A stretch of DNA of 64,000 nucleotides from Bacilli bacterium (GTDB lineage Bacteria > Bacillota_I > Bacilli_A > RF39 > UBA660). The translations under genes and the position numbers were made by a program. The notes below the pieces were generated by a model. That model was not told where the DNA came from and made no database searches. It saw only the letters and a list, made by a program, of their open reading frames with translations. The DNA lies in the NCBI GenBank assembly GCA_045541255.1, contig JAZQIU010000022.1:4264-68263 (forward strand). The letters run 5' to 3'. This document shows positions 2,720-29,194 of this stretch, piece by piece. How positions within the stretch are numbered: position 1 is the first letter of the stretch; every line of letters begins with the position of its first letter.

Positions 2720-3067
2720 TTAAAAATTTTTATCTATTTCTATTTCACTTTTTTTATTACAATTAACAGAATAATAATTTAATTTATCAAAAAAAGGCAC
2801 ATCAAATATACTTTTGTTCTGTGCCTTTTCTATATCTTTTTTAGTTATTATTCCTTTATAATACATATCTGTTAAATTGTGAGAAAGTGTCAAAGGATTA
2901 ATATTTTCTTGCATATTATTATTACATATATTAAATAAAAGTGATGATTCCTCATCAGATATTTCAGGAATAATATCATAAATACCTTGTAATATTAAAT
3001 AACTTTCTAAATGATTTTTATGATATTCTGGCATTATTTTATAGCAAGTAATTAACTGTTCCATCAC
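2720..3067 (-). CDS. hypothetical protein
   Basis: 115-aa ORF. Its start ATG overlaps the upstream stop (GTGATGG) with an embedded GGAG. No family recognised. Confidence 0.55.
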   Translation of the reverse strand: MMEQLITCYKIMPEYHKNHLESYLILQGIYDIIPEISDEESSLLFNICNNNMQENINPLTLSHNLTDMYYKGIITKKDIEKAQNKSIFDVPFFDKLNYYSVNCNKKSEIEIDKNF

Positions 3068-3732
3068 ACCAACTCCATTTCTTTTTCATTTGTTTCATTT
3101 GATAATTTTTCTTTAATTTTATCCAAATCTTTCTCAACTTTTTTCCAATCTATGCAATCTTCTAACGATGATATATAGTCTAAAACTTTCTCTCTATTTT
3201 CCAAATCTAATTCTATAAAATTCTTCAAATAATCTTGATTATTTACTCTTCCTGAATAACAAATAATATAATTATCTAAATCTGTATCATATTTTTCACA
3301 ATACATTTTTATTGCTCTATACTTAATTTCTATACCGCCCAAATGTACATCAGTCATATCAGTATTTCGATAATCCCAATCTCCACACAGTCTATTAAAT
3401 TCTTTAAGTTTTTTATTAATTTCTTTGTAATTCAATCTTGTAGAATTTGAAATTATTAAATAATTTTTATGGTGCATCTTATTTTGGATTGTTTCAATAG
3501 TAGGCAGTTTCTTTTTTATATTATAATATCTTCTAACTACTCTATTTAGATCTTTAGATAACTGATATTCATAATCCATTTTTTTATTTAACCCCATCTT
3601 CTTTAGTTCTAACTCAAAATTATAAGAAGTAATATATTTATCACCATTATACACATCTAAACTTATTAAAACTCTTTGACCTCGTTTATCTTTTATATCA
3701 CTTACAATAGTATATAAATTTTTATATTTCAT
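3064..3732 (-). CDS. hypothetical protein
   Basis: ORF track gives 3064-3759. The preferred start is the third ATG (MKYKNLY...), 10 nt after GGAG and overlapping the ArdC-like stop. No family recognised. Confidence 0.55.
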   Translation of the reverse strand: MKYKNLYTIVSDIKDKRGQRVLISLDVYNGDKYITSYNFELELKKMGLNKKMDYEYQLSKDLNRVVRRYYNIKKKLPTIETIQNKMHHKNYLIISNSTRLNYKEINKKLKEFNRLCGDWDYRNTDMTDVHLGGIEIKYRAIKMYCEKYDTDLDNYIICYSGRVNNQDYLKNFIELDLENREKVLDYISSLEDCIDWKKVEKDLDKIKEKLSNETNEKEMELV

Positions 3733-4663
3733 GCTCATCAAGCTCCATTTCTTTTTCATTATCTAATGTTTTTATTAATGATTTTTCTTCCATATAATCA
3801 ACTATTTTATCTGCATCTGATATTGCTTTAAAAAGTTCATTAGGTTTGTCTTTTAAAATATCTATCCAATTTTGGATATATGCTTTATGATTATTTAAGT
3901 GGTTTTCATCATATTCCAAACCTAATTTTTGCATCAAGAAAGATGAACTTATTTCTGCTCTCAATTCTTCTTTTGCATATTCAGAACTTCCAAAACCACC
4001 ACTTAAATCTCTATTTAATCTATTCTTATGACCTGTAGAATGTGCTAGTTCATGCAATTGCGTAGAATAGTATCCATACTTATTTTTAAATGTATTAATT
4101 GGTGGTAATACTACCATATCATTTCTAATATCGTAATATGCACTATTACCAAATTCTTGATATTTAACTTCTATATTATCAATTATATTTTTAATATATT
4201 CTGAAGTATTTATTTGTTCTTTTTCTGTTTCTATTCGTTTAGGTATCCCTTCAATCAAATCACCATTAAACACCGTTGTACACTTAGTTATTATTCTAAA
4301 ATTTTCTTCTTGTTCTGGATCTTCACGAACTATTTTCTCATATTCCTTGAAAGAACAAATTTTCCTCTCTTTTATATTATATCTGCTCCAATACTCTACG
4401 CATACACCTTGTCCTACCGCAGACTCTTTAAACTTCCAATTCTTTTTCTTAATTTGATTATAAGTACACCATCTATTATCTTTATAACCTTTTTTTACTG
4501 ATATATATGACAATGCCAAATTATTAACACCCTTATACTTCTTCCCTGAAATAGCATTAACAGGTTGCTCAACAGTCCATAATTTTTCCCAAGGAACAAC
4601 ATCTTCTTCTAAACTTTTAATGTACATATCAATTAAATTCTGTCTTGCTTTTGTATATTTCAA
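3722..4663 (-). CDS. ArdC-like antirestriction protein (N-terminal ssDNA-binding ArdC-N domain plus zincin metallopeptidase domain)
   Basis: N-terminal ...WEKLW...GKKYKGVNNLAL... is typical of ArdC-N/DUF1738. The C-terminal domain carries HELAHSTGH (HExxH). TTG start at 4663 directly follows the upstream TAA. Confidence 0.8.
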   Translation of the reverse strand: MKYTKARQNLIDMYIKSLEEDVVPWEKLWTVEQPVNAISGKKYKGVNNLALSYISVKKGYKDNRWCTYNQIKKKNWKFKESAVGQGVCVEYWSRYNIKERKICSFKEYEKIVREDPEQEENFRIITKCTTVFNGDLIEGIPKRIETEKEQINTSEYIKNIIDNIEVKYQEFGNSAYYDIRNDMVVLPPINTFKNKYGYYSTQLHELAHSTGHKNRLNRDLSGGFGSSEYAKEELRAEISSSFLMQKLGLEYDENHLNNHKAYIQNWIDILKDKPNELFKAISDADKIVDYMEEKSLIKTLDNEKEMELDEHEI

Positions 4664-5599
4664 TTAATAATCACGCTCCAATTCAATATCCTTTGAATCA
4701 TGACCCATTGCAATATGTTTTATTTTGGGAATAAAGTCTTTCAAATATATATTTTCATTTGAACAATATATATCTACTTCTAAATCTTCTAAAATATTAT
4801 GAACTTCTATTACATTTAAAATATTTCTTGATATTCTATCAATACTCATCATATAAACATCCTTCATATTGTTTGATTTTAAATCTTCTAACATATAAGA
4901 AAATGCTGGATTATTTAAATCCAATCCACTAAAACCATTATCTACATATATATTTATATTTTCTTCTGCTATTTCAGGATATTTTAATTTCAATTTATTA
5001 AAATTATAACTTATCTGTTTTTTTATTGCATCCTCAGAATATAATGCAGATCTACAATAAACAGAATACTCTTTTCTTTCAATTCTATCATTTTCTCTTG
5101 CTTCTTTTATAACAGCATTTATAGCATCTGAAATATCCGCTTCTTCTAAATCAACATCATATTCTATTTCTCCATCAGAATTATAATAAGATAATTCTAA
5201 CCAATTATTATTATAAAATTCCAATTCATAATTTTCATCGTTACCTGTTAAGATCGAAACCAAATGTTCATCATCTTTAATAAATTGTTTCATTTCCTCA
5301 TAAAATAATCCAGATTCATTTTTATCTTTTACAGATGCGATTAAATCACCTTTATGATAAAAATTTTCTTTATAATTTTGTTCATAATCCTCCTCATATT
5401 CATCTAGATCTTCATCTTCCTCTAATTTTTCTTCTAAAACAAAATCTCTTTTTGCCAGAAGTTTGCAACTAACTATACCTCTTGCTATTATCTCGTATTT
5501 ACTTTTATCATCAAATTCTATTAATGCCACTGTCCCACCATGCCACAAAACATTCTCAAAACCTTTTTTATTATCATATCTATTAACAGTTAGCTTCAT
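4664..5599 (-). CDS. protein with C-terminal serine-recombinase (resolvase) catalytic-domain homology, no DNA-binding domain, and an unknown acidic N-terminal domain
   Basis: The C-terminal ~140 aa read YSVYCRSALYSEDAIKKQ...IYVDNGFSGLDLNNPAFSYMLEDLKSNNMKDVYMMSIDRISRNILNVIEVHNILEDLEVDIY. This aligns by eye with the Y-x-R-V-S...D.G.SG....RP....ML......D.V.V...DRLSRN core of large serine recombinases. The preferred start is MKLTVNRY (5599) behind GAGAGGGG. Confidence 0.6.
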   Translation of the reverse strand: MKLTVNRYDNKKGFENVLWHGGTVALIEFDDKSKYEIIARGIVSCKLLAKRDFVLEEKLEEDEDLDEYEEDYEQNYKENFYHKGDLIASVKDKNESGLFYEEMKQFIKDDEHLVSILTGNDENYELEFYNNNWLELSYYNSDGEIEYDVDLEEADISDAINAVIKEARENDRIERKEYSVYCRSALYSEDAIKKQISYNFNKLKLKYPEIAEENINIYVDNGFSGLDLNNPAFSYMLEDLKSNNMKDVYMMSIDRISRNILNVIEVHNILEDLEVDIYCSNENIYLKDFIPKIKHIAMGHDSKDIELERDY

Positions 5600-5612
5600 A
5601 TTTTCCCCTCTC

Positions 5613-7001
5613 TTAAAACATTTCATCAGTTATATCAAAATCTGCATCAATTTCTTCATTATTTTTTAAATAAATTTCATTATAAATTTCATTAACTTCA
5701 TTAAATAATTTAGTTTGAATAATTGATAATTCTTCTTTAGTTAGGGTATGATTATTATCAATTGTATAGCCTGATACAGATACACCACCCATCTTTTCAT
5801 CAAATTCTAATTCACAAACAACTTCTTTTCCATTAACATTAAAATTAAATTTTTTGTTCTCTTTTCCATCATTAGAAAATTCAAAACAACTAATTATTTC
5901 AGGTTTAATATCAATATATTCTAATGTCTTTGGATAAGTATCAATAATATTAAATTCTATATAGTCTTGAATTCCAATGTTGCTTAATTCTGATTCTATA
6001 TTATCTATTTTCTCAAATAATTGATTATAATTAATATTCCAACTATCTAATAAATCATCAGCATACAACCTTATAGATTCATTATTATCAAAAGATAAAA
6101 CTTTTTTTACTAAATCTTTTAACTCTGGAGAAATTTTAACAATATCTGTTTTGTTTCTAACATTAAATCCTATAACTTTTTCAATTAATAATTCATCGGT
6201 AATCATTTGATTTTCAAGATTAAAATAATCGTACCCTTCATATAACTTTCTTCCGTCTTTGAAACTAATTTTATAATGCAAACCAACCTTATCTTCATCC
6301 CTCCATGAATTTAAGATTTCTATATTATATAAGTTTTGTAATCGTTTTTTTTCTTCGTAATATTTATTTTTTGCATCTTTAACTTTTAATTCAGCATTTA
6401 AAAAATCAATATCTGAACTATTAACCATTTTTTTATAAAAGTTTATAGCATTTGTTAAATCTCTTGAACATTCTATAAAATGTTTATTAAATTCATCTTG
6501 TGATTTTTCAGGATATTCTAAAATAAACATTAAATCTTCATATAAACTAGCATTAGATTTTACATTTAATCCTTGCCATTGTTTGCTGTTATTATTAATA
6601 CCATTTAAAAACTTTATTGCAACACCACCAGCATCATTCCAATCAAATAAGTTTTTTGTATAATCATCTATTAAATAATCAAACTTTGATACACCATTAG
6701 GAACAGACAATGCTTTATTATCACCATATTTAATAAAAATTCTTTTGTTTTTTGATAGTTCTGGTAAATATCTATCTAACCAATTATTCTTTTCCTCTAA
6801 AGCATATTTACTATCATTTAAAAAGGAAGAAAGTATATAAATATCTTCTCCCTTTTTTACTAATCCTTTTATAACTTGTAATAAAAATTCATTAGGTTTT
6901 AATTTTTCATAATATCCTTTTTCATATAATATATCTGTTGATTCATTTTCTTTCCATTCAGCTAAAGTTCCATCCATATCAATAAATAATCTTCTATTCA
7001 T
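5613..7001 (-). CDS. HAD-superfamily 5'(3')-deoxyribonucleotidase-like domain fused to a ~300-aa unknown C-terminal region
   Basis: N-terminus MNRRLFIDMDGTLAEW (DxDGT motif I), ...IYILSS... and ...YLIDDY..., as in NT5C/phage-type nucleotidases. The rest is unrecognised. The protein ends in DITDEMF. Confidence 0.65.
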   Translation of the reverse strand: MNRRLFIDMDGTLAEWKENESTDILYEKGYYEKLKPNEFLLQVIKGLVKKGEDIYILSSFLNDSKYALEEKNNWLDRYLPELSKNKRIFIKYGDNKALSVPNGVSKFDYLIDDYTKNLFDWNDAGGVAIKFLNGINNNSKQWQGLNVKSNASLYEDLMFILEYPEKSQDEFNKHFIECSRDLTNAINFYKKMVNSSDIDFLNAELKVKDAKNKYYEEKKRLQNLYNIEILNSWRDEDKVGLHYKISFKDGRKLYEGYDYFNLENQMITDELLIEKVIGFNVRNKTDIVKISPELKDLVKKVLSFDNNESIRLYADDLLDSWNINYNQLFEKIDNIESELSNIGIQDYIEFNIIDTYPKTLEYIDIKPEIISCFEFSNDGKENKKFNFNVNGKEVVCELEFDEKMGGVSVSGYTIDNNHTLTKEELSIIQTKLFNEVNEIYNEIYLKNNEEIDADFDITDEMF

Positions 7002-7003
7002 AC

Positions 7004-7198
7004 TTATTTCTCCTGAATTTGATTATCCAACTCTTGTTGCATTTGGTAAATTTTTTCTTGTTTCTTTTTAAAATCATATAAAACTTTAAGTTGCTGATCT
7101 AAATCACTAATCTTGTCTTCCACTTTTTTTATATTTTCTAATTCCTTTGTTTTCATTAACTCTATTTTTTCTATCTTTTTTTCTAATGTCTTATTCAT
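7004..7198 (-). CDS. small coiled-coil protein (hypothetical)
   Basis: 64-aa K/E/Q-rich ORF packed between neighbours with 2-nt and 19-nt gaps. Confidence 0.4.
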   Translation of the reverse strand: MNKTLEKKIEKIELMKTKELENIKKVEDKISDLDQQLKVLYDFKKKQEKIYQMQQELDNQIQEK

Positions 7199-7217
7199 TT
7201 TTTTCTCCTTTTCTTTT

Positions 7218-7586
7218 TTACATTTCTATATCTTTATCAAAATCGTTTTGTTGTTTATTTATTTCTTTTTCTCTTACTGGAGATACTAAACTAAAATCGT
7301 CAGGAATTATTTTAATTGTTTTTCTCTTTTCACCATCCTTTTCATAACTGCTAATATCCACTTCACCTGTAACAGAAACTATATCCCCTATTTTGAAATA
7401 ATCAACTGTTTTTTCAGCTTTCTTACCCCAAAGTTCGCAATCAAAAAAATTTGTTTTATATATACCTTCTGATTTTTTTCTTTTACTCTGTACTGCAACT
7501 GAGATATTTGCAACATTGCCATTTTTAGTATTTTTTATTTCTAAACCATTTGCAATTCTACCAACTAGAACAATATTATTTACCAT
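7218..7586 (-). CDS. ssb: single-stranded DNA-binding protein (OB fold), element-encoded
   Basis: MVNNIVLVGRIANGLEIKNTKNGNVANISVAV...FFDCELWGKKAEKTVDYFKIGDIVSVTGEV is a classic SSB N-terminal OB-fold signature. The C-terminus is DFDKDIEM rather than the canonical D-D-(I/L)-P-F. Confidence 0.85.
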   Translation of the reverse strand: MVNNIVLVGRIANGLEIKNTKNGNVANISVAVQSKRKKSEGIYKTNFFDCELWGKKAEKTVDYFKIGDIVSVTGEVDISSYEKDGEKRKTIKIIPDDFSLVSPVREKEINKQQNDFDKDIEM

Positions 7587-7942
7587 TATATTTCCCTTTC
7601 CTTTTCTATATCTATTACTTTATTTTTTTCATTTACAAAATATTTAATATTTTTCATAAACTCATCTTGCATATTTTCTTGTTCCATTTCTTCAAAAATA
7701 TCAATAAAATTTTCTGCTTGTATTCCTTTTAACTTAATATATGGTTTTGTAAAATTCACTAAGTTAAAAACATCTATTAGTTCTTCAGATAAATCTTCTA
7801 ATTCTTTTTTCTTATCTATACTATCTAATTGACCACCATCCAGTAATGTTCCAGTACAATCATAAAAACTATAATCAATATGTTCTGTATCATTTGATAT
7901 ATGCAAAAAATTATATTCACTACTAATCACAATTAGATTCAT
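7586..7942 (-). CDS. hypothetical protein, paralogue of 9454-9813
   Basis: MNLIVISSEYNFLHISN...DGGQLDS aligns with MNIIVISEDNKILHITN...FGGVLES of the other copy. The start overlaps the upstream stop (TAATG). Confidence 0.6.
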   Translation of the reverse strand: MNLIVISSEYNFLHISNDTEHIDYSFYDCTGTLLDGGQLDSIDKKKELEDLSEELIDVFNLVNFTKPYIKLKGIQAENFIDIFEEMEQENMQDEFMKNIKYFVNEKNKVIDIEKEREI

Positions 7943-8409
7943 TATATTTCTATCTCCTCCTCTATGTCTTCTTGCTCTTGTTCTTTTTCTTCAAATACTT
8001 GTTTAGCTAACATCAAACCATTTCTAAGATTTTCACTATGTCTAAGATTATATTCAGAAATATTAAGTGCCTCTAATACTGGTTGAATATCACGAGTATA
8101 TCCATATTCGTGATTATACATCTCATCTAAAAACATATCTTTAATAAATTTGTCACCAATTGTATCAGATTTTATTTCAAATTCTAGTTCTTTCTTATGA
8201 CGAGCATGAACTTCTTCTACTTTTGGCAAATCAACTTTTTTTAAATATATACCAGCACCAAAATAAATAAGTTTGTTAGTTTCATTTTCATTTAAACCCA
8301 GCTTTTTTAAACCATTTTTAAATTGTTCATCATTGAAAGCAAACATATAAGGAAGTTCATTAACTTCTTTTTGATGCTTATCTTTTAACAATCTATACTT
8401 ATTAGCCAT
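7942..8409 (-). CDS. hypothetical protein
   Basis: 155-aa ORF with TAATG coupling at both ends. No family recognised with confidence. Confidence 0.55.
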   Translation of the reverse strand: MANKYRLLKDKHQKEVNELPYMFAFNDEQFKNGLKKLGLNENETNKLIYFGAGIYLKKVDLPKVEEVHARHKKELEFEIKSDTIGDKFIKDMFLDEMYNHEYGYTRDIQPVLEALNISEYNLRHSENLRNGLMLAKQVFEEKEQEQEDIEEEIEI

Positions 8410-9461
8410 TATATTTCTATCTCCTCCATTTCTATCTCTTCATTTGTTTTCTCATTAATAATTTCTACTTCATACAAAACATTTTTCCCATAAGTTATTG
8501 ATGAAATTTTTTCAAAATCAAAACTGTGATTTCGCCAATTACCACTTGATTCTTTATATTTTTCTAAAAAATCTTTAACAATATCATAAGACTTTGCATA
8601 CATATCAGAATTTTTTTCGCATCGTTCTAAATCATTTACCAATGTATTTTTAGGATATTTAAAAGTTAAAGTATTTCCATAATAATTAATAGTTATATTT
8701 AAATTAACCGCTTCTATATCTTTGATACTAGACAATATTTTTCTATTCAAATACAAACCATCATATTTATTATCTTTGTTTTCCAAGATTTCTTTTAAAT
8801 AGTCATTTTGATAATCATTTTTTAGAATTGCCATACCTATTTCTTTTCTTATTTTTTCATCATTCTGCATCCATTTTGTTATCTTTAAAATTACATCAAC
8901 AGAATCATTTAAATAGTCATTATATATTAATTTATCACGAGTTTTAAATTCATCTTCATATTTATTTCTTGCACTAAAAGATGGTAAATCAACATAATTT
9001 TCTATCTCACTTGCAACAAATCTTCTATTTACATTATCCTTGTAACCATCGAAATAATATTCACTTTGATTATCAAATTCATCCTTCGATTCTTTTCGTA
9101 AAACATCTTTATTTTCAATACAGTAATCATTCATAATTTTTTCAATATCATTTTCCATTTTGTTTGATAATTCTCCAAAAAAAGATATTTTTACGATTTT
9201 AGATTCTCTTAATATTCTATCTACATCATACTTACAATTATATAAAACTTTATCTATACAATCATAATATCCCTCAAAATTATATTCTCTATCATCCATT
9301 CTATTAGGATCATATCTTTTAGAATATAACAAATAAAATCTATCATTATATTGTTCTTTATAAAAGTATTTACTTTCATAACTATACTGCTCATTTATAT
9401 ATAAATAGTGATTTATATATTCATTAATTAGAAAATCATCTAATGCCATTTTATTAAACAT
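8409..9461 (-). CDS. hypothetical protein
   Basis: ORF track gives 8409-9494. The preferred start is MFNKMALDD (9461), 6 nt after AAAGGTGG, giving an 8-nt ATGTTTAA overlap with the upstream stop. Confidence 0.55.
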   Translation of the reverse strand: MFNKMALDDFLINEYINHYLYINEQYSYESKYFYKEQYNDRFYLLYSKRYDPNRMDDREYNFEGYYDCIDKVLYNCKYDVDRILRESKIVKISFFGELSNKMENDIEKIMNDYCIENKDVLRKESKDEFDNQSEYYFDGYKDNVNRRFVASEIENYVDLPSFSARNKYEDEFKTRDKLIYNDYLNDSVDVILKITKWMQNDEKIRKEIGMAILKNDYQNDYLKEILENKDNKYDGLYLNRKILSSIKDIEAVNLNITINYYGNTLTFKYPKNTLVNDLERCEKNSDMYAKSYDIVKDFLEKYKESSGNWRNHSFDFEKISSITYGKNVLYEVEIINEKTNEEIEMEEIEI

Positions 9462-9813
9462 ATTGCCACCTTTCTTTAAAATAAAAGTAGTCATCTTTTC
9501 CGCTTATTGAATCAATATATTCAATAATTTTTCTTGATGATTTTTTATTATTTTCATATTTTATAAGTTTCAGCAAAGGAATAGTATTAGAACCATATAA
9601 ATATATATAAGGTTGTTCAAATTCTATTTCTTCCTGAATTAAATTCATAATCTCTTGAGTTAATTTCTCGTCATTAAAATATTCATATACACTTTCCAAT
9701 ACTCCACCAAACAAATAATACCCTTTTGAATTATAAAGAGTATATTCTGCTTGATAACCAAAATTTGTGATATGCAAAATTTTATTATCTTCACTAATTA
9801 CTATAATATTCAT
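9454..9813 (-). CDS. hypothetical protein, paralogue of 7586-7942
   Basis: N-terminal similarity to 7586-7942. TAATG coupling to the DUF4314-like gene. Confidence 0.6.
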   Translation of the reverse strand: MNIIVISEDNKILHITNFGYQAEYTLYNSKGYYLFGGVLESVYEYFNDEKLTQEIMNLIQEEIEFEQPYIYLYGSNTIPLLKLIKYENNKKSSRKIIEYIDSISGKDDYFYFKERWQYV

Positions 9814-10073
9814 TATATTTCTACCTCATCATGTACTTTAATATCTTTATCAATATTTTCTACAATTTCAAATTCATCTATTTCAGGAACTAATGCTAAA
9901 GTTCGTCCATTTTCCCAAATCATGTGTAATTGCCCTTCACTATCTATATAATCTATCGTTCCAATTGTTCCTGCTAGAATAGGATATTTATCATCCATAT
10001 CTTTAAGCATTTTCACTTTTGTTCCTATTGGATATTTTTCCTTAATTTTATTTAACTTATCTTCTGAAAGCAT
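9813..10073 (-). CDS. DUF4314-like small protein (common in Firmicutes conjugative elements)
   Basis: ...GTKVKMLKDMDDKYPILAGTIGTIDYIDSEGQLHMIWENGRTLALV matches, from memory, the DUF4314 pattern (G-T-x-V-x-hydrophobic-x-M-x-D-x-x-x-P-hydrophobic...G-x-hydrophobic-x-V-x-W-D/E-N-G-x-x-L). Confidence 0.55.
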   Translation of the reverse strand: MLSEDKLNKIKEKYPIGTKVKMLKDMDDKYPILAGTIGTIDYIDSEGQLHMIWENGRTLALVPEIDEFEIVENIDKDIKVHDEVEI

Positions 10074-10446
10074 ACTTATTATCTCCTTTTCTTAATATAC
10101 ACACACCATAAGGAAAACAATAATATTTACAAGTTTGGCAATTATTTCTATCTCTTCTAATAATAGGATTTATTTTAAAATCTCCATCTAAATTATGATT
10201 AGGCTGAATTAGATAATTATTAGATAAATAACCTGTTACTTTCAATAGTTTAATAAAATCAATTTCCAAAACTTCACATAAATTTATTAAAGTAATTAAA
10301 TTGAAATTCTTTCTTTCACCATTTTCAATTCTTGATAATTCTGTATCACTAATACCAACAATTCTTGATAAACCTCTAATAGAATAGTTTCTTTCTATTC
10401 TTTTACTTCTAAGTAAATCACTTAATAATAAATAGTTATATCTCAT
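10057..10446 (-). CDS. XRE-family HTH regulator with C-terminal CX2CX3CX5C cysteine cluster
   Basis: ERNYSIRGLSRIVGISDTELSRIENGERKNFNLITLINLCEVLEID is a Cro/C1-type HTH. The C-terminus reads CQTCKYYCFPYGVC. The preferred start is MRYNYLL (10446), 7 nt after AAGGAG; the track start at 10470 is a TTG inside the terminator T-run. Confidence 0.75.
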   Translation of the reverse strand: MRYNYLLLSDLLRSKRIERNYSIRGLSRIVGISDTELSRIENGERKNFNLITLINLCEVLEIDFIKLLKVTGYLSNNYLIQPNHNLDGDFKINPIIRRDRNNCQTCKYYCFPYGVCILRKGDNKYAFRR

Positions 10447-10470
10447 TTTTATTCTCCTTTTCTTTTTCAA

Positions 10471-10497
10471 AATAAAAAAGAATCAATTAAGATTCTT
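10471..10497 (-). terminator. rho-independent terminator/attenuator inside the element's gene array
   Basis: The minus strand reads AAGAATC-TTAATT-GATTCTT followed by TTTTTTATTTT. It lies 15 nt after the stop of 10512-11363 and immediately before the XRE gene's RBS. Confidence 0.55.
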
Positions 10498-10511
10498 CAA
10501 CATCAAATAAT

Positions 10512-11363: not shown

Positions 11364-11385
11364 TATTTATTATCTTCCTCCTTTG

Positions 11386-11745
11386 TTATTTTTCTATTTC
11401 CAATTCCATAGTTTTATTATTTTCTATATAACCTGTATCAACCAATATATCTTCTAAAGAACAAATTTCAAAATAATTATTTTTTGAATATTCACTTATA
11501 CTAGAAAATGTAAATCCCTTACCTAACTGATATTCAAAACATACATCTTCTGGATTACAATATTTTAGTCCTGCATTGTAACAAAATCCTTTTTCAAACC
11601 CATATTTATCAAATAATTTTTCCATATAATCTACTTTAGATAATCCTAAATTTTTCATTAGTTGAATAAAATTCTTAAATTCATTTTCATTTTTTAAATT
11701 TATAACAACTGAATTTAATAAAAATAATTCATATTTGTTTTCCAT
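11386..11745 (-). CDS. hypothetical protein
   Basis: 119-aa ORF with TAATG coupling to the upstream gene. Ends ELEIEK. Confidence 0.5.
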   Translation of the reverse strand: MENKYELFLLNSVVINLKNENEFKNFIQLMKNLGLSKVDYMEKLFDKYGFEKGFCYNAGLKYCNPEDVCFEYQLGKGFTFSSISEYSKNNYFEICSLEDILVDTGYIENNKTMELEIEK

Positions 11746-12074: not shown

Positions 12075-12093
12075 TTTTCACTTTGATTTCCTT

Positions 12094-20336: not shown

Positions 20337-20361
20337 ATATCATCTCCTTGTGATAATTCTT

Positions 20362-20682: not shown

Positions 20683-20706
20683 CTTATTCTCCTTTTCTAT
20701 TAAATT

Positions 20707-22677
20707 TTATAAACTGTCTAATAATTCATCAGTTATAGTTTTATTTGATAATAAAATATCACTATCCATTTTATTTAATTCAAATTCTGTTATAGGACGC
20801 ATTTCTAATTTTTGTACTTTAGCAAAAGGAAGTCCTAATTCATTTAACATCGTTTGATATTTATTCATTTCCTTTGTCATTTCTCTTTGTCGTTTATGAT
20901 CATAATAATTATGTGCTGTTCTTTCTTTATCCCAAGGTTCAAATAATTCATTATATCTAGGATGTTGTTTTAAATTATAAACTTTTGATGTAAAAGGACG
21001 AAGACCAGAAACTAGCAAAATACAATATCCTTCTTTCATTCTTGCAATTTCATCTACCGTTGATAATTCCCTACCTACTATATCCCAATTTGTAGAAGAT
21101 GAGCCTTGTTTAGAAAAAGTTCTTCCTGAACTCTTTTTATACCAAGTTTTCTTTCCCATAAGTAAAGAAATGTATTCTAAAGTCTCTTTACTTCGTGATC
21201 CAAGAAATAAAGTGTAATCGCAACAATCTAACCCTGTTTCCCAATTATCTTTATATACTTTTTTATATTGAGATAAACTCTGTAATCCTATTGTTACACC
21301 ACAATTTAATCCTCTAATATAAGCAAGCATTTCTAAAAAGCGTGGTATTGTTCCTAGCTGACTCCATTCATCCATATAAATTTGACAACCTGATGGTAAT
21401 GAACCATTATGCTGACTTGCATTATAATCTATTATTGTAAATATTTGAGAATATAAGATATTTGCAAGAAAGTTAAAAGTAGAATTGTTTGGACTTGTTA
21501 TTATAAAACAAGCAATTTTTCCTTTATCTCCTGCCTCTCCAATTCTACTTAATTCTAATGTATCAGTAGTAGTCATATTTTCAAGTTCTGCTATATTAAA
21601 TGGTGCAAGTCTAGCTGAAGCAGTCATAATAATTGTTGACATCATTTTTGGAGACGATGCAGACACTTTAAAATGATTCCATTGTTTTATACCGACATTA
21701 TCTGGATCTTTTCTTTCCCAAGCATCAAATAATCTTCCAAGTTGTGAATTACCTTCTTTATCAGGTTCTGCAAGTCTAATTAATTCAAGAATAGTTTTAA
21801 AGTTCTTATCCTTGTCTTCATAATTGAAAATAACATAATACATAATAGCTTGTAGAAAGACCATCTCCGCTTTTTCCCAGAATGGGTCACCTGTATTACT
21901 TTCAATAGTATCAGATTTAGTATTTTGCATTAATACATTAATAAGTGTCATTACATCATCTTCTTGTATTCTTTCTTTTTGAATTTCTTCAGATATTGAA
22001 AGACCATTATTCATGTCAATTTCTCTATATTCTTTTGGTATTCTTCTAATATACATTAATGGATTGAAATTATCAGATTGACTTTTATCTACTAAATTTA
22101 AAACCTTTATATCATAACCATTATTTACTAAAGACATTCCGCAATCTCTCAATAGTTCACCTTTAGGGTCTGTAATGATTAGTGATTCTCCATTTGCACT
22201 TAATATATTAGGTTTAAAATAACTTCTACTTTTCCCAGTCCCAGGTCTTCCAATCAAGGTTACATTTCTATTTCTTTTTGATATTCTCATATTTTTAGAA
22301 AATAATTCTGTTGATGTGAAAATTTGATTATTTTCAAAAACTGGATCTCTAAACTTTTTTATAGTATCAGGAGTTTCCCAATCAGAAGAACCATAAGTAT
22401 TTTCTTGAATATTCTTTTTTATAGATAATTGATAATTAAATATAATTACAAAAGTCATAAAGCCAACAAAAATAGAAATACCAATAGTTTGAGTATTTAT
22501 TATTAATGGTGTATTAAATTTATAGATTGTATTTAACGCCTCATTCAAATAATCTACTTTAAAATCGCCACCATTTTGTTCTACTAAAGTACATACTCTT
22601 AATGTGAAATAAGAGGCGATTAAAACTATTAAAAAAATAAGAACATAATTTGTTTTATGTTCTCGTTTAACGATCAA
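20707..22677 (-). CDS. VirD4/TraG-type type IV coupling protein
   Basis: Two N-terminal TMs and Walker A LIGRPGTGKSRS. Also YMDEWSQLGTIPRFLEMLAYIRGLNCGVTIGLQSLSQ, typical of the TraG/TraD family. Confidence 0.9.
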   Translation of the reverse strand: MIVKREHKTNYVLIFLIVLIASYFTLRVCTLVEQNGGDFKVDYLNEALNTIYKFNTPLIINTQTIGISIFVGFMTFVIIFNYQLSIKKNIQENTYGSSDWETPDTIKKFRDPVFENNQIFTSTELFSKNMRISKRNRNVTLIGRPGTGKSRSYFKPNILSANGESLIITDPKGELLRDCGMSLVNNGYDIKVLNLVDKSQSDNFNPLMYIRRIPKEYREIDMNNGLSISEEIQKERIQEDDVMTLINVLMQNTKSDTIESNTGDPFWEKAEMVFLQAIMYYVIFNYEDKDKNFKTILELIRLAEPDKEGNSQLGRLFDAWERKDPDNVGIKQWNHFKVSASSPKMMSTIIMTASARLAPFNIAELENMTTTDTLELSRIGEAGDKGKIACFIITSPNNSTFNFLANILYSQIFTIIDYNASQHNGSLPSGCQIYMDEWSQLGTIPRFLEMLAYIRGLNCGVTIGLQSLSQYKKVYKDNWETGLDCCDYTLFLGSRSKETLEYISLLMGKKTWYKKSSGRTFSKQGSSSTNWDIVGRELSTVDEIARMKEGYCILLVSGLRPFTSKVYNLKQHPRYNELFEPWDKERTAHNYYDHKRQREMTKEMNKYQTMLNELGLPFAKVQKLEMRPITEFELNKMDSDILLSNKTITDELLDSL

Positions 22678-23875
22678 TTAGTTGTTCCTCTTCTAATTCT
22701 ATTGAAGGAGCAATATCTAAAGTATTCTCCTTTTCTTCAGCAAATTCATTAGCCTCTCTTAACAAATCTGCTGTTGAAGACTTTTTTTTAACTTCTTCCG
22801 CCATTTCTTTAGTATCTTTTTCTCTTACATAAGCATTTATAGTTCCATCAGAATTATGAATAGCAACAAAATCTTTACCTTTATATGTGTTTTTAAATGC
22901 ACTAAAATCATTATCGTTATTTAACTTAACACTAATTATATTATTGCTATTACTTTCTGCTTCTATTTCTTTAGCTCCACTTGCACCATATTCTTTTATA
23001 GGTTTGTCAAGAGGAGCAAATTTTTTATATTCTTCTAAATCGTCTGAATTAATCGCTACAATTACCTCACCATTAGGCATTACTTTAGCACCATGTGATT
23101 TTAATTCAAATAATTGTTCTCTTATTTCACAATACTCTGATTTAGATATTTTTTGATGACAGAAGTTTTTAGTATAATCTCTAACAAAACAAGAACCATA
23201 GTCAGTTCCTATTTCTAATTGTTCTGGATATATATTTATATCTCTTGAAACAATCTTACTATCTTTATCTATTAAGCCATTATCATTTATTTCATCAAGA
23301 TCTTCAGATATAGTTCTTTGTGTTCTCTTCTTTTCTAATATTTCTAACTGTTCATTAAAGAAAGCAAGATGACTTTTATTACACAAAATAATATATCTTT
23401 CATCAGGATACTTTAAATTATCTTCTTTAGAACGCTCTCTAAATTTATCTGTTTTTCTTTGACTAAGCCATCCTAAAAAAGGAACATTTTTAAAAACTTT
23501 TCTTCTTTCATTCCATTTTTCAAATTTTATTTCATTCTTTGCAAGTTTTTCTTGTTTATGCAACGATTGATTTTTTCCTTCATCCCCATCTGGTTGCATC
23601 TTTTTTACACCAACTAATATTCCATTTTCCCTCGCATTTGTAATTAACTCTTTTGCTTCCGCTCTAGTTAAAGGAGATGATACAGCAAGTTCTTTTGTTG
23701 CACCATCTTTCTTTAAGGCTCTTAATGATGAAGAAAAATGTTTTTGATAATACTTTCTAGCTTTAGATGTTGCTTTTGCCATTAGTCTTGCTAATATTCC
23801 TGTGCTTTTAGTTGATGCTCGTACTGCTCTTTCTGATGCGTGTTCTAAATCACTTTTTGCATTTCCATCAGTCAT
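22667..23875 (-). CDS. PcfB-like (DUF3801-type N-terminal domain) protein
   Basis: N-terminal ...SLRALKKDGATKELAVSSPLTRAEAKELITNARENGILVGVKK resembles the PcfB/DUF3801 family that habitually precedes VirD4. It overlaps the coupling-protein gene by 11 nt. Confidence 0.5.
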   Translation of the reverse strand: MTDGNAKSDLEHASERAVRASTKSTGILARLMAKATSKARKYYQKHFSSSLRALKKDGATKELAVSSPLTRAEAKELITNARENGILVGVKKMQPDGDEGKNQSLHKQEKLAKNEIKFEKWNERRKVFKNVPFLGWLSQRKTDKFRERSKEDNLKYPDERYIILCNKSHLAFFNEQLEILEKKRTQRTISEDLDEINDNGLIDKDSKIVSRDINIYPEQLEIGTDYGSCFVRDYTKNFCHQKISKSEYCEIREQLFELKSHGAKVMPNGEVIVAINSDDLEEYKKFAPLDKPIKEYGASGAKEIEAESNSNNIISVKLNNDNDFSAFKNTYKGKDFVAIHNSDGTINAYVREKDTKEMAEEVKKKSSTADLLREANEFAEEKENTLDIAPSIELEEEQLIDR

Positions 23876-23879
23876 TAAA

Positions 23880-26800
23880 TTATGCTACCTCCTTCTCTAA
23901 ATACTTATCTTTTACTTCTGTTAATTCTTTGTCTTGAAAAAAAGTAGTTAAAAAAGCAACAACTTCATCAGAAGTTTTAAACATTCCATTTTGAACAAGT
24001 TCATTTCTATATGGAGCAATATTTCTTCCTTCTGGTTTATACAAATATACATCATTTAATTTAACATGCACTACCGTTTCAAAACATTCGTAATCAGGTT
24101 CAATCGTTGCTGTTTTAAATTCTAATCTATCTAATCCTGATTTGTAAGTTACATCTTTAAATGACTTGATTAACTTATTAAAATCAACTTTGTCGTTTTT
24201 ACTAAACTGAATAACTTTACTTTCTTTTTTAGATAATCCTTTTCTTATTTCTTCAATACCATAATTACCAATATAACTTCCTTCTTTGGTATAAAAACTT
24301 AATTGTTCATTTTTAGATAATTCTAAAATAATATTTTCTTTATCATCTTTACACTTGATTAAATTAATTGAAATATAACCTATAATATTATCTATATTTA
24401 TTGGTATTTTAATAAAGTTACTACAATATTCACAATTTGTTTTAGGTACTTTTATAGTTTCTTTATCACCCTTTTTATATGAAGCAGGATAAAATACACT
24501 TAAATATTCTGTTATTTCATTAAATGCTAATCTTTTTTCATAAGTCTTTTCTTCACCATCAAACTTATATTTTGATATTCCTGTTCCTGTTAAAAAGTTC
24601 TTTTTAGGATGAACAATTAGATAACTATTATCTTGATTCCATTTACATATTTTTTTCATAATAAAAAGTAAAATATTCTTATCATTTGTTTTTACATAAT
24701 AACCGTTATCAGTTTCTTTAAATATTCTACTTTTAAAAACCTTACATACGGGTTCTTTTTGTGGGATAAAAGGTTGAACTTCTTTTATTGTTTCATCTGC
24801 TGGTATTTCTTCTTTCTTTTCTTCCTTTGAATTTTCACTTTCAAAAACATTATTTTTTTTACTTGTTTTATCCTCCCAATAATATTTTAATTCTTCAGCA
24901 CTTTTCTCATATTTAAAATTACCATGCTTATTATATACCTTATATTTATTTCCACTTTTTAATTTAGTAAAGATTATTTCACCAGACCAATTACATTCAT
25001 TTTTAGGTATATAAAAATAATCTTTTGCACCTGTATTAGGTATTCTCACAAAATAATGCGTATTAGTTTCAAAAGATGGATTTAAAAGTGTTTGATTTAT
25101 AGAAAATACATAATCTTTATTTACATCTTGTTCTTTATGAATTTCTTTTTTCAAATTATTCTGTTCCAATCCATTTTCTTTTATTAATTGTTCTTTTTCT
25201 AATTTCATTTTGCCATCTAAATTATTAAAGAAAAGTATTGTTTTGTAATTACCAGTTTTACCTTTAAATTCATTACTAATAAATTCTTTATTAATATTTA
25301 AAAATAAACATCCATATTTAAAAAAATCCATATTATCTGGATTTAAGAATAATCTATCTTGAATGTTTTCTTTAAATAACTTCATAATATCATTATCATA
25401 AACAAGAATACCATCTAAATCTTTGGTATCATTAATAATATATAATTCCTCAACTTCTTCTAAAGCAAGTTTATCTTTATCACTAAGTCCTTTTTCATAT
25501 TGTTTTATAACCTGCTGTTTTTGTTCAAAAGTAAGATTTACTCTTGCACTACCATTTATATTTTTTATATAAGTTTTATCAAATAAATCTTCATATTTAA
25601 ACCGATGTAAGGTTTCATAATTTGAATATTCATTGTCATTATTTAACACATCGTATATTAATAAAGCAGTATTTAATTTCATAGCGTTTTTAGATAAATA
25701 TTTAGTAGATTCTAAATGAAATAATCTTAACGCTTCATTATTGATTTGTTCTTTTTTTAATTCATAATATCCTGATAATACTTTATCATTCCTTTTATCT
25801 AAAAATTCCGCTAATTCATTTTTAATACGATCATCCATAACAATTGATTGAAAATTACTAATTGGATTAACCTTTGTAGAAATATTTTTAGGATAGATTA
25901 TTTCATCTAATTCTTCTTTAGTAAAATCAGTCTTTTTTAATAAATATTCTTTATATAAAGATTCATCTAATGTTGATGTTATAAACTCATCTTTCTTTGC
26001 CTTCTCAAAAACATCATGAATATTTAAAACAGATAATTCTTTATCCATAAAGTAATAATAATCCATCATAAATTCAAAAGCAGATATTCTAGCTTTTACA
26101 ATTTCTTGTTTAGGAATATTATCATTACCTATATCACCAAAATCTTTATAGTTACCTAATTTTGAAATATCAAGAACATCAACTTTAAATCCTTGCTTCA
26201 ATAGATTGGGAATTTGTTCAATCATCTTTTTTCTGCCTATATTTTCTTTATCATTTTTAAAATCATTATCTAATGCTAATACTAATGTTGAATTATCTTT
26301 CTTTAATAATTTTATATGTTCCTCTGTTATTGCTGTTCCCATTAAAGCAACAACATTATTAAATCCTAATTGTTTAGCTGAAATGACATCCATATAACCT
26401 TCAACAATATATAATTCATCATTATAAGAATATTTTTTAGCATCATGATAATTATATAGTAGTTCTTTTTTATGAAATATAGGTGTTTCTTTTGTATGAA
26501 GATATTTTGGTTCTTCATCTTTTATTGTTCTTCCTGCAAAAGTAATAACATTACCTTTTTCATCACAAATCGGAAACATTATCCTATCAACAAAAGTTTC
26601 ATAATATCCATTATCACCTAATTGAATTAATCCCAAATCAGTTAATTGATGTGGTTTTATTTTTGCATTTGGATCATTATTTTCTGACATTCTTATTATT
26701 TGACCTTTGGGAGCAAATCCTATATTCATTTCTTTTATTAATTCATCCGTTAATCCTCTATCTTTTAAATACTTTAAAGGTGCATCTCTAACAGCAGTTA

Positions 26801-27230
26801 AATTATAATTAAATAGTTTTGCCATATAATTATTTACTTCTATTAAAGATTGCTCTTCTTTATTATATTTTCTCGCAGTTGTAGTATATTGATAATTCAT
26901 TTGATTCTTTTTCAATTTTGATAAATCAATTTTCAAATTACATATTTCAGCAATTTTAATTAAAGCGTCATTTGATGAAATAGGATTATGATTAATTTCA
27001 GTTTCATACTTTTTTACAAAAGTTAAGACATTACCTCCAGCACCACAAGGAAAACAATGAAACAAATTCTTTTTATCATCCACTTTCATACTAGGAGAAT
27101 GATCTGCATGAAAAGGACAAATCGCATTTCCTTTACTTACATTTATTCCATAGTAATTCATTACATCTACAATATTGACATTATTTAGAACCTCTTTATA
27201 TATATCTGATATAATTATCCCTCCAATCAT
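23880..27230 (-). CDS. DNA primase (CHC2 zinc finger plus Toprim) with ~700-aa unknown C-terminal extension
   Basis: CPFHADHSPSMKVDDKKNLFHCFPCGAGGNVLTFV is a CHC2 Zn finger. ELYIVEGYMDVISAKQLGF...LALDNDFKNDKENIGRKK is a Toprim E...DxD signature. Confidence 0.85.
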   Translation of the reverse strand: MIGGIIISDIYKEVLNNVNIVDVMNYYGINVSKGNAICPFHADHSPSMKVDDKKNLFHCFPCGAGGNVLTFVKKYETEINHNPISSNDALIKIAEICNLKIDLSKLKKNQMNYQYTTTARKYNKEEQSLIEVNNYMAKLFNYNLTAVRDAPLKYLKDRGLTDELIKEMNIGFAPKGQIIRMSENNDPNAKIKPHQLTDLGLIQLGDNGYYETFVDRIMFPICDEKGNVITFAGRTIKDEEPKYLHTKETPIFHKKELLYNYHDAKKYSYNDELYIVEGYMDVISAKQLGFNNVVALMGTAITEEHIKLLKKDNSTLVLALDNDFKNDKENIGRKKMIEQIPNLLKQGFKVDVLDISKLGNYKDFGDIGNDNIPKQEIVKARISAFEFMMDYYYFMDKELSVLNIHDVFEKAKKDEFITSTLDESLYKEYLLKKTDFTKEELDEIIYPKNISTKVNPISNFQSIVMDDRIKNELAEFLDKRNDKVLSGYYELKKEQINNEALRLFHLESTKYLSKNAMKLNTALLIYDVLNNDNEYSNYETLHRFKYEDLFDKTYIKNINGSARVNLTFEQKQQVIKQYEKGLSDKDKLALEEVEELYIINDTKDLDGILVYDNDIMKLFKENIQDRLFLNPDNMDFFKYGCLFLNINKEFISNEFKGKTGNYKTILFFNNLDGKMKLEKEQLIKENGLEQNNLKKEIHKEQDVNKDYVFSINQTLLNPSFETNTHYFVRIPNTGAKDYFYIPKNECNWSGEIIFTKLKSGNKYKVYNKHGNFKYEKSAEELKYYWEDKTSKKNNVFESENSKEEKKEEIPADETIKEVQPFIPQKEPVCKVFKSRIFKETDNGYYVKTNDKNILLFIMKKICKWNQDNSYLIVHPKKNFLTGTGISKYKFDGEEKTYEKRLAFNEITEYLSVFYPASYKKGDKETIKVPKTNCEYCSNFIKIPINIDNIIGYISINLIKCKDDKENIILELSKNEQLSFYTKEGSYIGNYGIEEIRKGLSKKESKVIQFSKNDKVDFNKLIKSFKDVTYKSGLDRLEFKTATIEPDYECFETVVHVKLNDVYLYKPEGRNIAPYRNELVQNGMFKTSDEVVAFLTTFFQDKELTEVKDKYLEKEVA

Positions 27231-27258
27231 CTGTCAAGTTCTAAATCTAAATTTTATA

Positions 27259-27739: not shown

Positions 27740-27751
27740 ATTTTTCTCCTC

Positions 27752-28033
27752 TTAAAACATATCATCTACTATATCTTTTTCAATATTAGTAAGCGTCTTT
27801 TTCTTATCTGCTTCTCTATACCACAGTTTCATTTTTTCACCATTATCTTTGTTATATGCTAACCAATAAATATCTGCTTCAATATTAGGAGTTACCTTAC
27901 CTTGAATTATTAAATTGAAATTACGATTTTTCATATAATTTATTACTTCTTGTTGAAAGTTTTTTCTTTTATTTGTATCTATTACAGTAAAAGTTTCATT
28001 TGTATCATAGTTATATATTTCAATCTTTTTCAT
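27752..28033 (-). CDS. hypothetical protein
   Basis: 93-aa ORF tightly packed with its neighbours. Ends DIVDDMF. Confidence 0.5.
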   Translation of the reverse strand: MKKIEIYNYDTNETFTVIDTNKRKNFQQEVINYMKNRNFNLIIQGKVTPNIEADIYWLAYNKDNGEKMKLWYREADKKKTLTNIEKDIVDDMF

Positions 28034-28037
28034 TTTA

Positions 28038-28424
28038 TTATCTATCCAATTCCAAATCTAAATCTTGTTCTTTTTCTAAACAAGGTTTTAAGATTTCTTC
28101 TAATTTTTTACAAAGTTCAGATTGATTTTTAAATCTAAATCGTTCATAACTTTTGCTATATTCATTACTTTTGCAATCTAAATCTAATTGAGCTGTTGCT
28201 ATTTCTAAATCCTTAAACGACTCTGTTATCCACATTCTTTTGTTAAGGATTTTACTTTCAACAATTATCCATAATGGTTGATTTTTCTCTACATAATCCT
28301 GATTAGTACGCATCCAATTAGAACGATCATTAATACGCTCTAAATCAGCATTAAATAATAATTTATATATTTCTCTATATTTTTTATGATAAATAGGATT
28401 TAATAGACTTTCTGTTCTTCTCAT
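28038..28424 (-). CDS. hypothetical protein
   Basis: 128-aa ORF with its RBS embedded in the upstream gene's end (GGAGATAGATAAATATG). Confidence 0.5.
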   Translation of the reverse strand: MRRTESLLNPIYHKKYREIYKLLFNADLERINDRSNWMRTNQDYVEKNQPLWIIVESKILNKRMWITESFKDLEIATAQLDLDCKSNEYSKSYERFRFKNQSELCKKLEEILKPCLEKEQDLDLELDR

Positions 28425-28426
28425 AT

Positions 28427-29194
28427 TTATCTATCTCCAAGTTCGATTTCATCATTACTCTTATCTTCTCTATTAAATTGTAGAAAATAATCTTTTTCAT
28501 AATAACAACCTGATTTATTACTACATATAACTTCGATATTTGAAAGTTTATCTTTCGTTCCTAAATCCAAATCGGAAAAATTTTCTTTTTTTATTGTTCT
28601 ATCATTTAAAATTAATGTATCCCATTTGAAAACATCTTTTAATTTTTGAAAATTATATAAATCTTCTTTTTTTATAGGCGTACCTATATCAAAGTCTTTA
28701 TAACTACGAAATATTTTTACTTCAATATCATCTGAACCATGTTCTTTTATAAACTCATCAATTTCTTTCTTTATTGATAATTTTATAAGTTCATCATCGA
28801 CATTACGATTAGTTGGTGGTAATTTTATTGTTTTTCTAAAATATGGATTTAAGATAACAGCCATAGTATTATCATTATAATAAAAATTTTTTCTATATTC
28901 TTTTTCCATTTCTTGTAGTTCTAACAAATCACTCATTAACAAATCTATATCGTAATTAATACTTATACGATTAGAAGTTAAAACTTTATCTTTATATAGT
29001 TGTTTTACTACTTTATAAAGTTTTATATCTGAATATTTTCCTTCTAATTCATATCTGTCTTCGCCACCATTTCCGTCTTGCGACCAAAAACCTATTTTTT
29101 CATCACCTAAATATAAATCACCTTGTGTCGCATAACCTTCACGACCTAACCAAGTTGTAGTATTTTTTATATTTAATCCGTTTATACTAGCCAA
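28427..29194 (-). CDS. hypothetical protein
   Basis: 255-aa ORF with a TTG start 8 nt after AAAGGAGAG. It is the first gene after the terminator-like hairpin. Confidence 0.5.
   Translation of the reverse strand: MASINGLNIKNTTTWLGREGYATQGDLYLGDEKIGFWSQDGNGGEDRYELEGKYSDIKLYKVVKQLYKDKVLTSNRISINYDIDLLMSDLLELQEMEKEYRKNFYYNDNTMAVILNPYFRKTIKLPPTNRNVDDELIKLSIKKEIDEFIKEHGSDDIEVKIFRSYKDFDIGTPIKKEDLYNFQKLKDVFKWDTLILNDRTIKKENFSDLDLGTKDKLSNIEVICSNKSGCYYEKDYFLQFNREDKSNDEIELGDR

Follow-up and report, generated by a model that had tools for sequence, protein, structure and literature searches.

Conjugation machines of Gram-negative bacteria move proteins besides DNA by means of signals that are poorly defined, while substrates of the Agrobacterium VirB/D4 system carry an Arg-rich C-terminal signal. 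In the literature searched, no general sequence signal is described for Gram-positive systems, and no description was found of a tail such as the one analyzed here on Gram-positive conjugative elements. The DNA in question is a 64,000-nucleotide stretch of the genome of a Bacilli bacterium (contig C22:4264-68263; genome 1.37 Mb, 25.5% GC, 57 contigs), hereafter the window, which harbours a Gram-positive conjugative element at positions ~1264-36202 with every gene on the minus strand. Many otherwise unrelated soluble proteins of this element end in a short acidic-hydrophobic tail, whose nature is addressed below. Positions are those of the window unless a contig is given.

The closest described parallel is the E-block of the Dot/Icm (type IVB) secretion systems of Legionella and Coxiella, a Glu-rich C-terminal signal with a hydrophobic residue close to the end, which is bound by the coupling-complex protein DotM (PMC3096851, PMC5802825). 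As there, the element tails place an acidic block within the last ~25 residues of many unrelated proteins, with hydrophobic residues near the end, and it is composition rather than sequence that is conserved. A Glu/Asp-rich C-terminal block is present in 17/21 accessory proteins, and the hydrophobic residue expected at about -3/-4 occurs at a frequency of 0.52 at -3 (0.57 at -1). In contrast, the start of the E-block, which has no fixed register, usually lies 11-18 residues before the C-terminus, whereas the motif of the element is fixed to the last four residues. The machines differ as well, since Dot/Icm is a Gram-negative type IVB system with DotL, DotM and IcmSW, and the element encodes a Gram-positive apparatus of the VirB4/VirD4/PrgI type; the Pfam matches of all its proteins (VirD4-type coupling protein, VirB4/TraG P-loop, PrgI, CHAP, PcfJ) include no Dot/Icm family.

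Another parallel is the tfs3 element of H. pylori, in which CtkA, PZ39 and Fic share a basic KRRR C-terminal tail that was read as a signal for a type IV secretion system (T4SS) (PMC5536186). In both cases a short tail, absent from homologues elsewhere, has been added to several unrelated proteins of a single conjugative element. The charge is, however, opposite (basic there, -2.3 over the last eight residues here), three proteins are involved instead of ~20 per element, and the tfs3 host is Gram-negative.

The acidic tails of the SSB tip and of phage T7 gp2.5 and gp4 serve as a docking peptide common to more than one protein. They resemble the tails of the element in having an acidic run and a terminal hydrophobic residue at a free C-terminus, and the SSB of the element is itself tailed, but the P-F of the SSB tip is missing, many tails end in K, R or E, and host SSBs keep DDDLPF. 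A further resemblance is to gene junctions of the TAATG or ATGA type with an embedded Shine-Dalgarno (SD) sequence, because about half of the window tails contain GGAG or GAGG before an overlapping start. Junctions of this kind in the host nevertheless yield varied C-termini and never the motif, and tails are also found on uncoupled genes.

Tails of the accessory proteins

The 15 C-termini listed in a preliminary description of the window were all reproduced exactly from the sequence (Table 1), and the comparison with all host proteins that it proposed was carried out. Genes were called genome-wide by greedy longest-ORF selection; as the C-terminus is set by the stop codon alone, errors in start calls are immaterial. 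Within the final 10 residues, the strict motif E[ILM]E[ILMK] is found in 8/34 element proteins and in 12/1450 proteins in the rest of the genome (Fisher p 3e-9), and the relaxed motif [DE][ILMV][DE][ILMV] in 12/34 and 19/1450, respectively (p 3e-13). Nearly all matches elsewhere in the genome map to a paralogous element (C11:26000-47177 plus C7:1-2700) with the same gene order and 31-66% identity by BLAST. When this element is set aside, the strict motif remains in 2 and the relaxed motif in 10 of ~1,410 host genes. The enrichment over the host genome is ~40-fold. In 10-residue windows from the interior of these element proteins the strict motif has a frequency of only 0.25-0.46%, which shows the C-terminal specificity of the signal. 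The statement that most small proteins of the element are tailed holds for the relaxed pattern [DE]-hydrophobic-[DE], found in 13 of 16 proteins at 2720-12074, but not for the strict one, which is found in 7 of these 16 and fits just ~1/4 of all element proteins.

The tails are in register with the C-terminus. Acidic residues (D/E) have a frequency of 0.67 at -4 and again at -2, hydrophobic residues one of 0.52 at -3, and the last position is hydrophobic (0.57) or K/R (0.33), whereas the host profile is flat. K and R are depleted at -2 to -8, and the mean net charge over the last eight residues is -2.29. When an acidic tail is defined as at least three D/E and a net charge of at most -2 in the last eight residues, it is present on 17/21 accessory proteins, which are also somewhat acidic overall, and on 5/14 T4SS and surface proteins. 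Over the window element, the paralogous element (C11 and C7) and three loci of relatives (L028, L031 and G432), the tail is carried by 79/122 (65%) soluble proteins vs 5/37 (14%) proteins with a transmembrane-like segment. The soluble proteins without a tail are the primase, VirB4, the relaxase, the HTH regulator, a 64-aa protein and one of two paralogous 119-aa proteins. Genes 7586-7942 and 9454-9813 form a paralogous pair of 118 and 119 aa (33% identity) with just one member tailed; the other ends in ERWQYV in all three relatives.

Annotated domains finish well ahead of the tail, at residue 282 of 313 in ArdC and 137 of 155 in DUF7659. In an AlphaFold2 model of the DUF7659 protein the tail forms the tip of a long C-terminal helix, where confidence falls (pLDDT 77-85), and it is not clearly disordered.

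Among the element proteins, Pfam searches identified a NikA-like relaxosome protein, a solo ArdC (ArdC-N plus zincin MPTase), a resolvase-like protein, an NT5C fusion, SSB, an LPD16-like protein (weak LPD16 match), DUF7659, DUF4314 and an HTH regulator, together with a PcfJ-like protein, a CHAP hydrolase, VirB4, PrgI and a VirD4-type coupling protein. The element also encodes a 1116-aa DnaG-type primase (23880-27230) and two large surface proteins. The protein at 22667-23875 had been labelled PcfB-like, but Pfam gave no match and the label is unconfirmed.

Table 1 Tails and related features of the conjugative element (tail coordinates include the stop codon)
Feature	Position	Strand	Remarks
Tail EIEIDKNF, 115-aa protein	2720-2746	-	Last gene before a 144-nt gap, no coupled downstream gene
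Tail NEKEMELV, 231-aa protein	3064-3090	-	Embedded GGAG; GTGA overlap onto next start
Tail MELDEHEI, solo ArdC (ArdC-N + MPTase)	3722-3748	-	Pfam domains stop at residue 282/313
Tail DIELERDY, resolvase-like 320-aa protein	4664-4690	-	
Tail DFDKDIEM, element SSB	7218-7244	-	In place of canonical DDDLPF tip; own SD past stop
Tail DIEKEREI, LPD16-like 118-aa protein	7586-7612	-	TAATG overlap
Tail DIEEEIEI, DUF7659 protein	7942-7968	-	Includes exact 21-nt junction repeat
Tail IEMEEIEI, 361-aa protein	8409-8435	-	Includes second copy of 21-nt junction
Tail KVHDEVEI, DUF4314 protein	9813-9839	-	Retained in L028 despite DUF3846 domain inserted ahead of tail
Tail EKDLEIEM, 283-aa protein	10512-10538	-	Uncoupled; 41-nt gap with weak hairpin and U-run
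Tail TMELEIEK, 119-aa protein	11386-11412	-	Separate AGGAGG past stop
Tail IELEEIER, 109-aa protein	11745-11771	-	TAATG overlap
Tail EEEQLIDR, 402-aa protein immediately upstream of coupling protein	22667-22693	-	
Tail DLDLELDR, 128-aa protein	28038-28064	-	
Tail DEIELGDR, 255-aa protein	28427-28453	-	
VirD4-type coupling protein	20707-22677	-	T4SS-DNA_transf, TraG-D_C; candidate tail receptor by inference only; 68% identical in tail-bearing G432 element
Second tail FDITDEMF, NT5C-fusion protein	5613-5639	-	
Second tail KDITEDMF, PcfJ-like protein	12819-12845	-	
Second tail KDIVDDMF, 93-aa protein	27752-27778	-	

Lineage, gene junctions and mode of selection

Tail-bearing relatives are represented by the syntenic contigs L028 and L031 and by G432, whose coupling protein is 68% identical to that of the window element. 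In two distant elements from Clostridia metagenome-assembled genomes (L033 and L035), ~17-22 of 22-26 genes end in poly-Glu tails. The tails are missing in a C. botulinum plasmid (25% GC, PcfJ/PrgI-type T4SS), an E. faecalis plasmid, two phage contexts of DUF7659 and 11 elements with coupling proteins of 30-39% identity (0-4 of ~20 genes each). Homologues of the DUF7659 protein at 68-92% identity retain EEIE-EE[IL]E[IK], those at 39-49% identity have a different acidic tail or none, and a search across 400 genomes of the class returned two other loci with weakly similar tails. Solo ArdCs bear an acidic tail in only 4/16 cases, and the tail has thus been appended patchily. It is an appendage, as DUF7659 and ArdC homologues outside the lineage are mostly without it. 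What is established is a motif at the protein level that is anchored to the C-terminus, specific to this element lineage and carried by soluble accessory proteins. The resolvase-like protein was searched in 60 relatives, with generic serine recombinases only as a result, and a back-translated pattern scan of the species genomes with it gave no match.

A check proposed earlier, whether tails are retained in orthologues when the downstream gene differs, was run, and the tails persist. In the LPD16-like family the next gene may be SSB or a 267-aa, 64-aa, 347-aa or 176-aa gene, and the family members end in IEKEREI, DYEMEKC, DYEIEKC, YIEIER or YIELDK. Tails are also retained in orthologues across gaps of 40-60 nt and where whole domains have been gained or lost (DUF3846 in DUF4314 proteins, the 280-aa domain in NT5C), and orthologues of the 115-aa protein (2720-3067) end in DIEIEKNF, KELEKNF and NEIEHS.

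At overlapping genes the tail codons were thought to double as the SD sequence of the next gene, with a rather long GGAG-to-ATG spacing of about 10-11 nt. This is borne out: 9-10 window tails embed GGAG or GAGG before an overlapping start, and the spacing is 11 nt at the junctions that contain the 21-nt sequence GGAGGAGATAGAAATATAATG, identical at the ends of 7942-8409 and 8409-9494, compared with SD sequences 7-8 nt upstream in host TAATG junctions. The main claim, that embedded ribosome-binding sites explain only some of the tails, holds on the evidence from host junctions, uncoupled genes and codon bias given below. No GGAG-like core 5-13 nt ahead of a coupled start is found for SSB, 10512-11363, 11386-11745, 2720-3067 and many tails of the C11 element, and SSB (7218-7586) and 11386-11745 each have, as described, a separate SD past the stop codon. 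The terminator reported after 10512-11363 exists as an 8-bp AU-rich hairpin with a U-run, but it is weak (-8.1 kcal/mol, z -1.5) and was not called by a consensus scan.

One reading takes the tails for a by-product of translation and of junctions, in which an in-frame SD and an A-rich spacer encode them, junction copying spreads them and relics persist after coupling is lost. Exact 21-nt and 18-nt repeats at neighbouring junctions do show some junction copying, and tails are commonest at overlapping junctions. The codons of coupled tails are also those that such a reading expects, with GAG making up 36% of Glu codons vs 13% in the body of the protein, ATA 77% of Ile codons vs 49%, and TTG likewise enriched. 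In uncoupled tails, however, codon usage equals that of the body (GAG 14% vs 12%; the ATA difference is not significant). SD-type codon bias thus occurs at overlapping junctions only. The SD signal is superimposed on some tails and did not give rise to them.

The host genome gives no support to a junction origin either. Among 209 host genes whose stop codon overlaps or abuts the next start, the strict motif is found in none and the relaxed motif in one; an equal tail frequency in unrelated AT-rich host operons, which the preliminary description had named as the sign of an SD or codon-bias artefact, is therefore not observed. In 60 host TAATG junctions the SD lies 7-8 nt upstream and is read in all frames, with ends as varied as LEEK, RRIY, KEVK and GGNN. 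Within the element itself, the equally compact and tightly coupled T4SS genes are without tails (5/14 acidic vs 17/21 for accessory genes). Conversely, acidic tails are frequent away from overlaps, being present on 21/40 genes with a gap of more than 0 nt (window and C11 elements) and on 29/45 genes with a gap of at least 10 nt or no downstream gene (four related loci), compared with ~10% in the host.

Two further candidates were rejected. A pure artefact of composition or codon bias is ruled out by the controls in host genes, AT-rich plasmids and phages, and the T4SS genes of the same element. A role of GAAATAGAAATA as a DNA- or RNA-binding site is ruled out by the distribution of the nucleotide pattern, which is found almost exclusively at the ends of genes in frame 0 (the elements contain 2 intergenic copies).

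Comparison of orthologues indicates how the tails evolve. Change at the amino-acid level is faster in tails than in bodies (pN/pS 0.59 vs 0.28, and ~1 at larger distance), and synonymous divergence is slightly lower (0.31 vs 0.40), a point in favour of the by-product reading. Of 103 single-nucleotide non-synonymous differences in tails, 73 (71%) leave the residue in its class (acid, hydrophobic or basic), compared with an expected 34%, while in the eight residues preceding the tail the class is kept in 29% vs 28% expected. Orthologue pairs are phylogenetically dependent and related elements are not independent samples, so that p-values are overstated, although the effect is large. Such behaviour is that of a short linear or compositional peptide signal, and the motif is maintained by selection on the protein rather than on the DNA. 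Basic residues, whose codons are equally purine-rich, are depleted, a further point against the by-product reading.

Possible readers of the tail

A tag shared at the protein level is well supported by these sequence comparisons. We tentatively favor a shared recognition tag whose most plausible reader would be a T4SS substrate receptor; the single common reader and its identification with the T4SS are both inferred. The motif itself, a short linear one anchored to the C-terminus, consists of an acidic run that closes with [D/E]-hydrophobic-[D/E]-[hydrophobic or K/R]-COOH, and the element family appends it to almost all its soluble accessory proteins (ArdC, SSB, DUF7659, DUF4314, LPD16-like and uncharacterized proteins). 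The SD sequence that overlies the tail codons at gene overlaps is secondary. A single partner, either the VirD4-type coupling protein itself or a protein that it binds, would read the tag, and anti-restriction proteins and proteins protecting single-stranded DNA (ssDNA) would be shipped to the recipient alongside the DNA.

Transport of proteins of this kind has precedents. The SSB, PsiB and Par proteins of the F plasmid are T4SS substrates (PMC8406263), polyvalent proteins have been proposed to travel with the DNA, and pSa ArdC and RP4 TraC1 are known to be transferred (PMC5512222). The Dot/Icm and tfs3 signals described above are further precedents, and the exchange of DDDLPF for the element tail in the element SSBs also speaks for this reading. 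The element carries several solo domains of polyvalent proteins (Iyer, Burroughs and Aravind 2017), namely ArdcN plus MPTase-PolyVal and a weak LPD16, to which relatives add DUF3846, LPD28 and DpnD-PcfM. The tail recurs on large polyvalent ArdC proteins: 10/124 (~8%) end exactly in [DE]-hydrophobic-[DE]-hydrophobic (YELEM, IELEM, MEIEL, YELEL and others) vs 3/1409 in the host.

Several observations weigh against a recognition tag read by the T4SS. The relaxase (511/561 aa, ending in YYKSK/YYKTK), the DnaG-type primase (KEVA) and VirB4 are all tail-less, and transfer would be expected of the relaxase and the primase above all other proteins. The C-terminal signals known from type IVA conjugative systems have a basic or hydrophobic character instead of an acidic one (PMC11288057, PMC5536186), and the positive net charge or clustered Arg residues that mark the last ~20 positions of such signals are not seen here, with a mean of -2.29 over the last eight. 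The tailed genes lie in a block resembling a leading region and could be expressed in the recipient, making transport unnecessary. Composition and pattern are kept while the exact sequence evolves fast, which a purely physico-chemical role would explain too. Overlapping junctions (15/16) also have tails more often than the ends of uncoupled genes do. Finally, a crude estimate of net charge does not point to an acid-binding surface on the coupling protein, and neither net nor sliding charge revealed a distinguishing basic surface among the four coupling proteins in the genome. Of the earlier alternatives, a T4SS translocation signal and a common docking tail, taken jointly as a signal at the peptide level, fit the data best, although the tail-less relaxase and primase argue against a simple label for the coupling protein. 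The third, a by-product of cassette shuffling, is disfavored as a full explanation, as tails outlast changes of the downstream gene, residue class is kept and distant elements have poly-Glu.

A tail on ~20 unrelated proteins per element that recurs on large polyvalent ArdC proteins would be a mutable and transplantable handle. It could be used to address which proteins accompany the DNA, by what means they are selected by the coupling protein or another hub and how incoming elements overcome the defences of the recipient within the first minutes. If the tail is only a device for solubility or stability, it would still be a lineage-specific design rule for "early" conjugative proteins. It is possible, if somewhat doubtful, that [D/E]-hydrophobic-[D/E]-hydrophobic/K/R-COOH together with its poly-Glu variant forms a general cargo address label for a large clade of Gram-positive conjugative T4SSs. 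In that case the recipient-bound set (anti-restriction and ssDNA-coating proteins, methylases and polyvalent proteins) would be readable from sequence.

The strongest alternative is a docking tip for a hub outside secretion, like the SSB tip or the tails of T7 gp2.5 and gp4, which would act, for example, at the host replisome or on the single strand as it enters, in the donor or in the recipient. The SSBs of both elements have exchanged DDDLPF for a tail in the style of their neighbours: the window SSB ends in DKDIEM beside DLEIEM, and the SSB of the paralogous element (C11:42073-42450) in EEEMDR beside LEMDR. Host SSBs at C29:3250-3672 and C53:31603-32067 retain DDDLPF, and another SSB (C17:45064-45399) is tail-less. 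Recognition of the free carboxylate is suggested by the register with the C-terminus, and a second type of tail, described below, resembles the SSB tip. Nevertheless, the last aromatic residue is essential for SSB-tip recognition, whereas ~40% of the tails end in K, R or E instead of a hydrophobic residue; none ends in P-F, and the consensus D-D-D-[I/L]-P-F is not found in the element tails. No candidate hub was found, and it is hard to see why enzymes as different as a nucleotidase, a methylase and a peptidase should use the same docking site. We regard this alternative as unlikely.

Somewhat less probable still is an acidic tail without any reader, acting through its physico-chemical properties on the solubility of proteins expressed in a burst, by reducing non-specific DNA binding or by protecting against C-degron recognition in unfamiliar hosts. 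Conservation of charge and pattern class instead of sequence, the plain poly-Glu of distant elements and the near restriction to soluble proteins, with accessory proteins somewhat acidic overall, would all be expected from such a role. A strict last-four register with alternating hydrophobic residues, on the other hand, is unexpected of a mere charge bristle, and many ends expose I, M or F and offer no protection from proteases. Soluble host proteins and other AT-rich plasmids and phages manage without such tails.

The tail might also mark a module boundary inherited from polyvalent proteins or shared with them, as a site recognized or cut by an ArdC-type MPTase, so that split genes would end where processed modules end. 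In an exhaustive search the closest relatives of the solo ArdC (3722-4663) were mostly polyvalent proteins of 400-1400 aa with an N-terminal ArdC-MPTase, and 28/96 polyvalent proteins have [DE]-hydrophobic-[DE]-[K/R/hydrophobic] within 15 residues past this module, compared with 3.2% per window elsewhere. ArdC-MPTase is present in every tail-bearing element family seen, and processing of polyvalent proteins by MPTase has been proposed (PMC5512222). The motif following the module is a tail-like GE[FIML]E[KR] (GEFEK, GEIEK, GEMEK), but this is a lead only because part of it, GEF, is a conserved feature of the domain family and the match may be incidental. Cleavage is purely a proposal, and it leaves unexplained why polyvalent proteins are tailed at their extreme C-terminus too. 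This possibility appears improbable.

Least probable of all, and very much so, is the by-product of translation and junctions considered above, given the varied ends of host junctions, the tail-less T4SS genes, the frequent uncoupled tails without SD-type codon bias and a residue class conserved far above expectation.

A second tail type and minor observations

Three window proteins share another C-terminal tail, D-I-x-[D/E]-[D/E]-M-[F/Y] (Table 1), which resembles the SSB tip, is kept in L028, L031 and the C11 element and is essentially confined to the elements in this genome. In the NT5C protein it is kept as DICDEMY (C11:41105-41131) in the 179-aa orthologue of the C11 element, which is without the 280-aa C-terminal domain.

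The G432 element (G432:C2:2124-24063, L040) is a mosaic with a T4SS like that of the window and accessory and mobilization genes like those of C11. Relatives (L028:3979-6698 and L031:4353-7039) encode a 398-aa version of the 119-aa protein 11386-11745, followed by an N6/N4 DNA methyltransferase that is absent from the window; the short and the long form share the ELEIEK tail.

A few runs of acidic ends occur elsewhere in the genome, such as among RNA polymerase genes on C57, but these are without the registered motif and at chance level.

Two non-cargo proteins have loosely acidic and hydrophobic ends, an Ig-like surface protein (14307-14702), which ends in LDVAED, and the coupling protein, which ends in DELLDSL. 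The acidic C-terminal tail of F-plasmid TraD binds TraM, and the acidic end of the coupling protein may merit a separate look.

The GC skew at 2001-12000, in the accessory block, is ~-0.35 to -0.45, and that of the T4SS block ~-0.2 to -0.28. The accessory block thus has a stronger strand bias, i.e. a heavier purine load on the coding strand, than the T4SS block.

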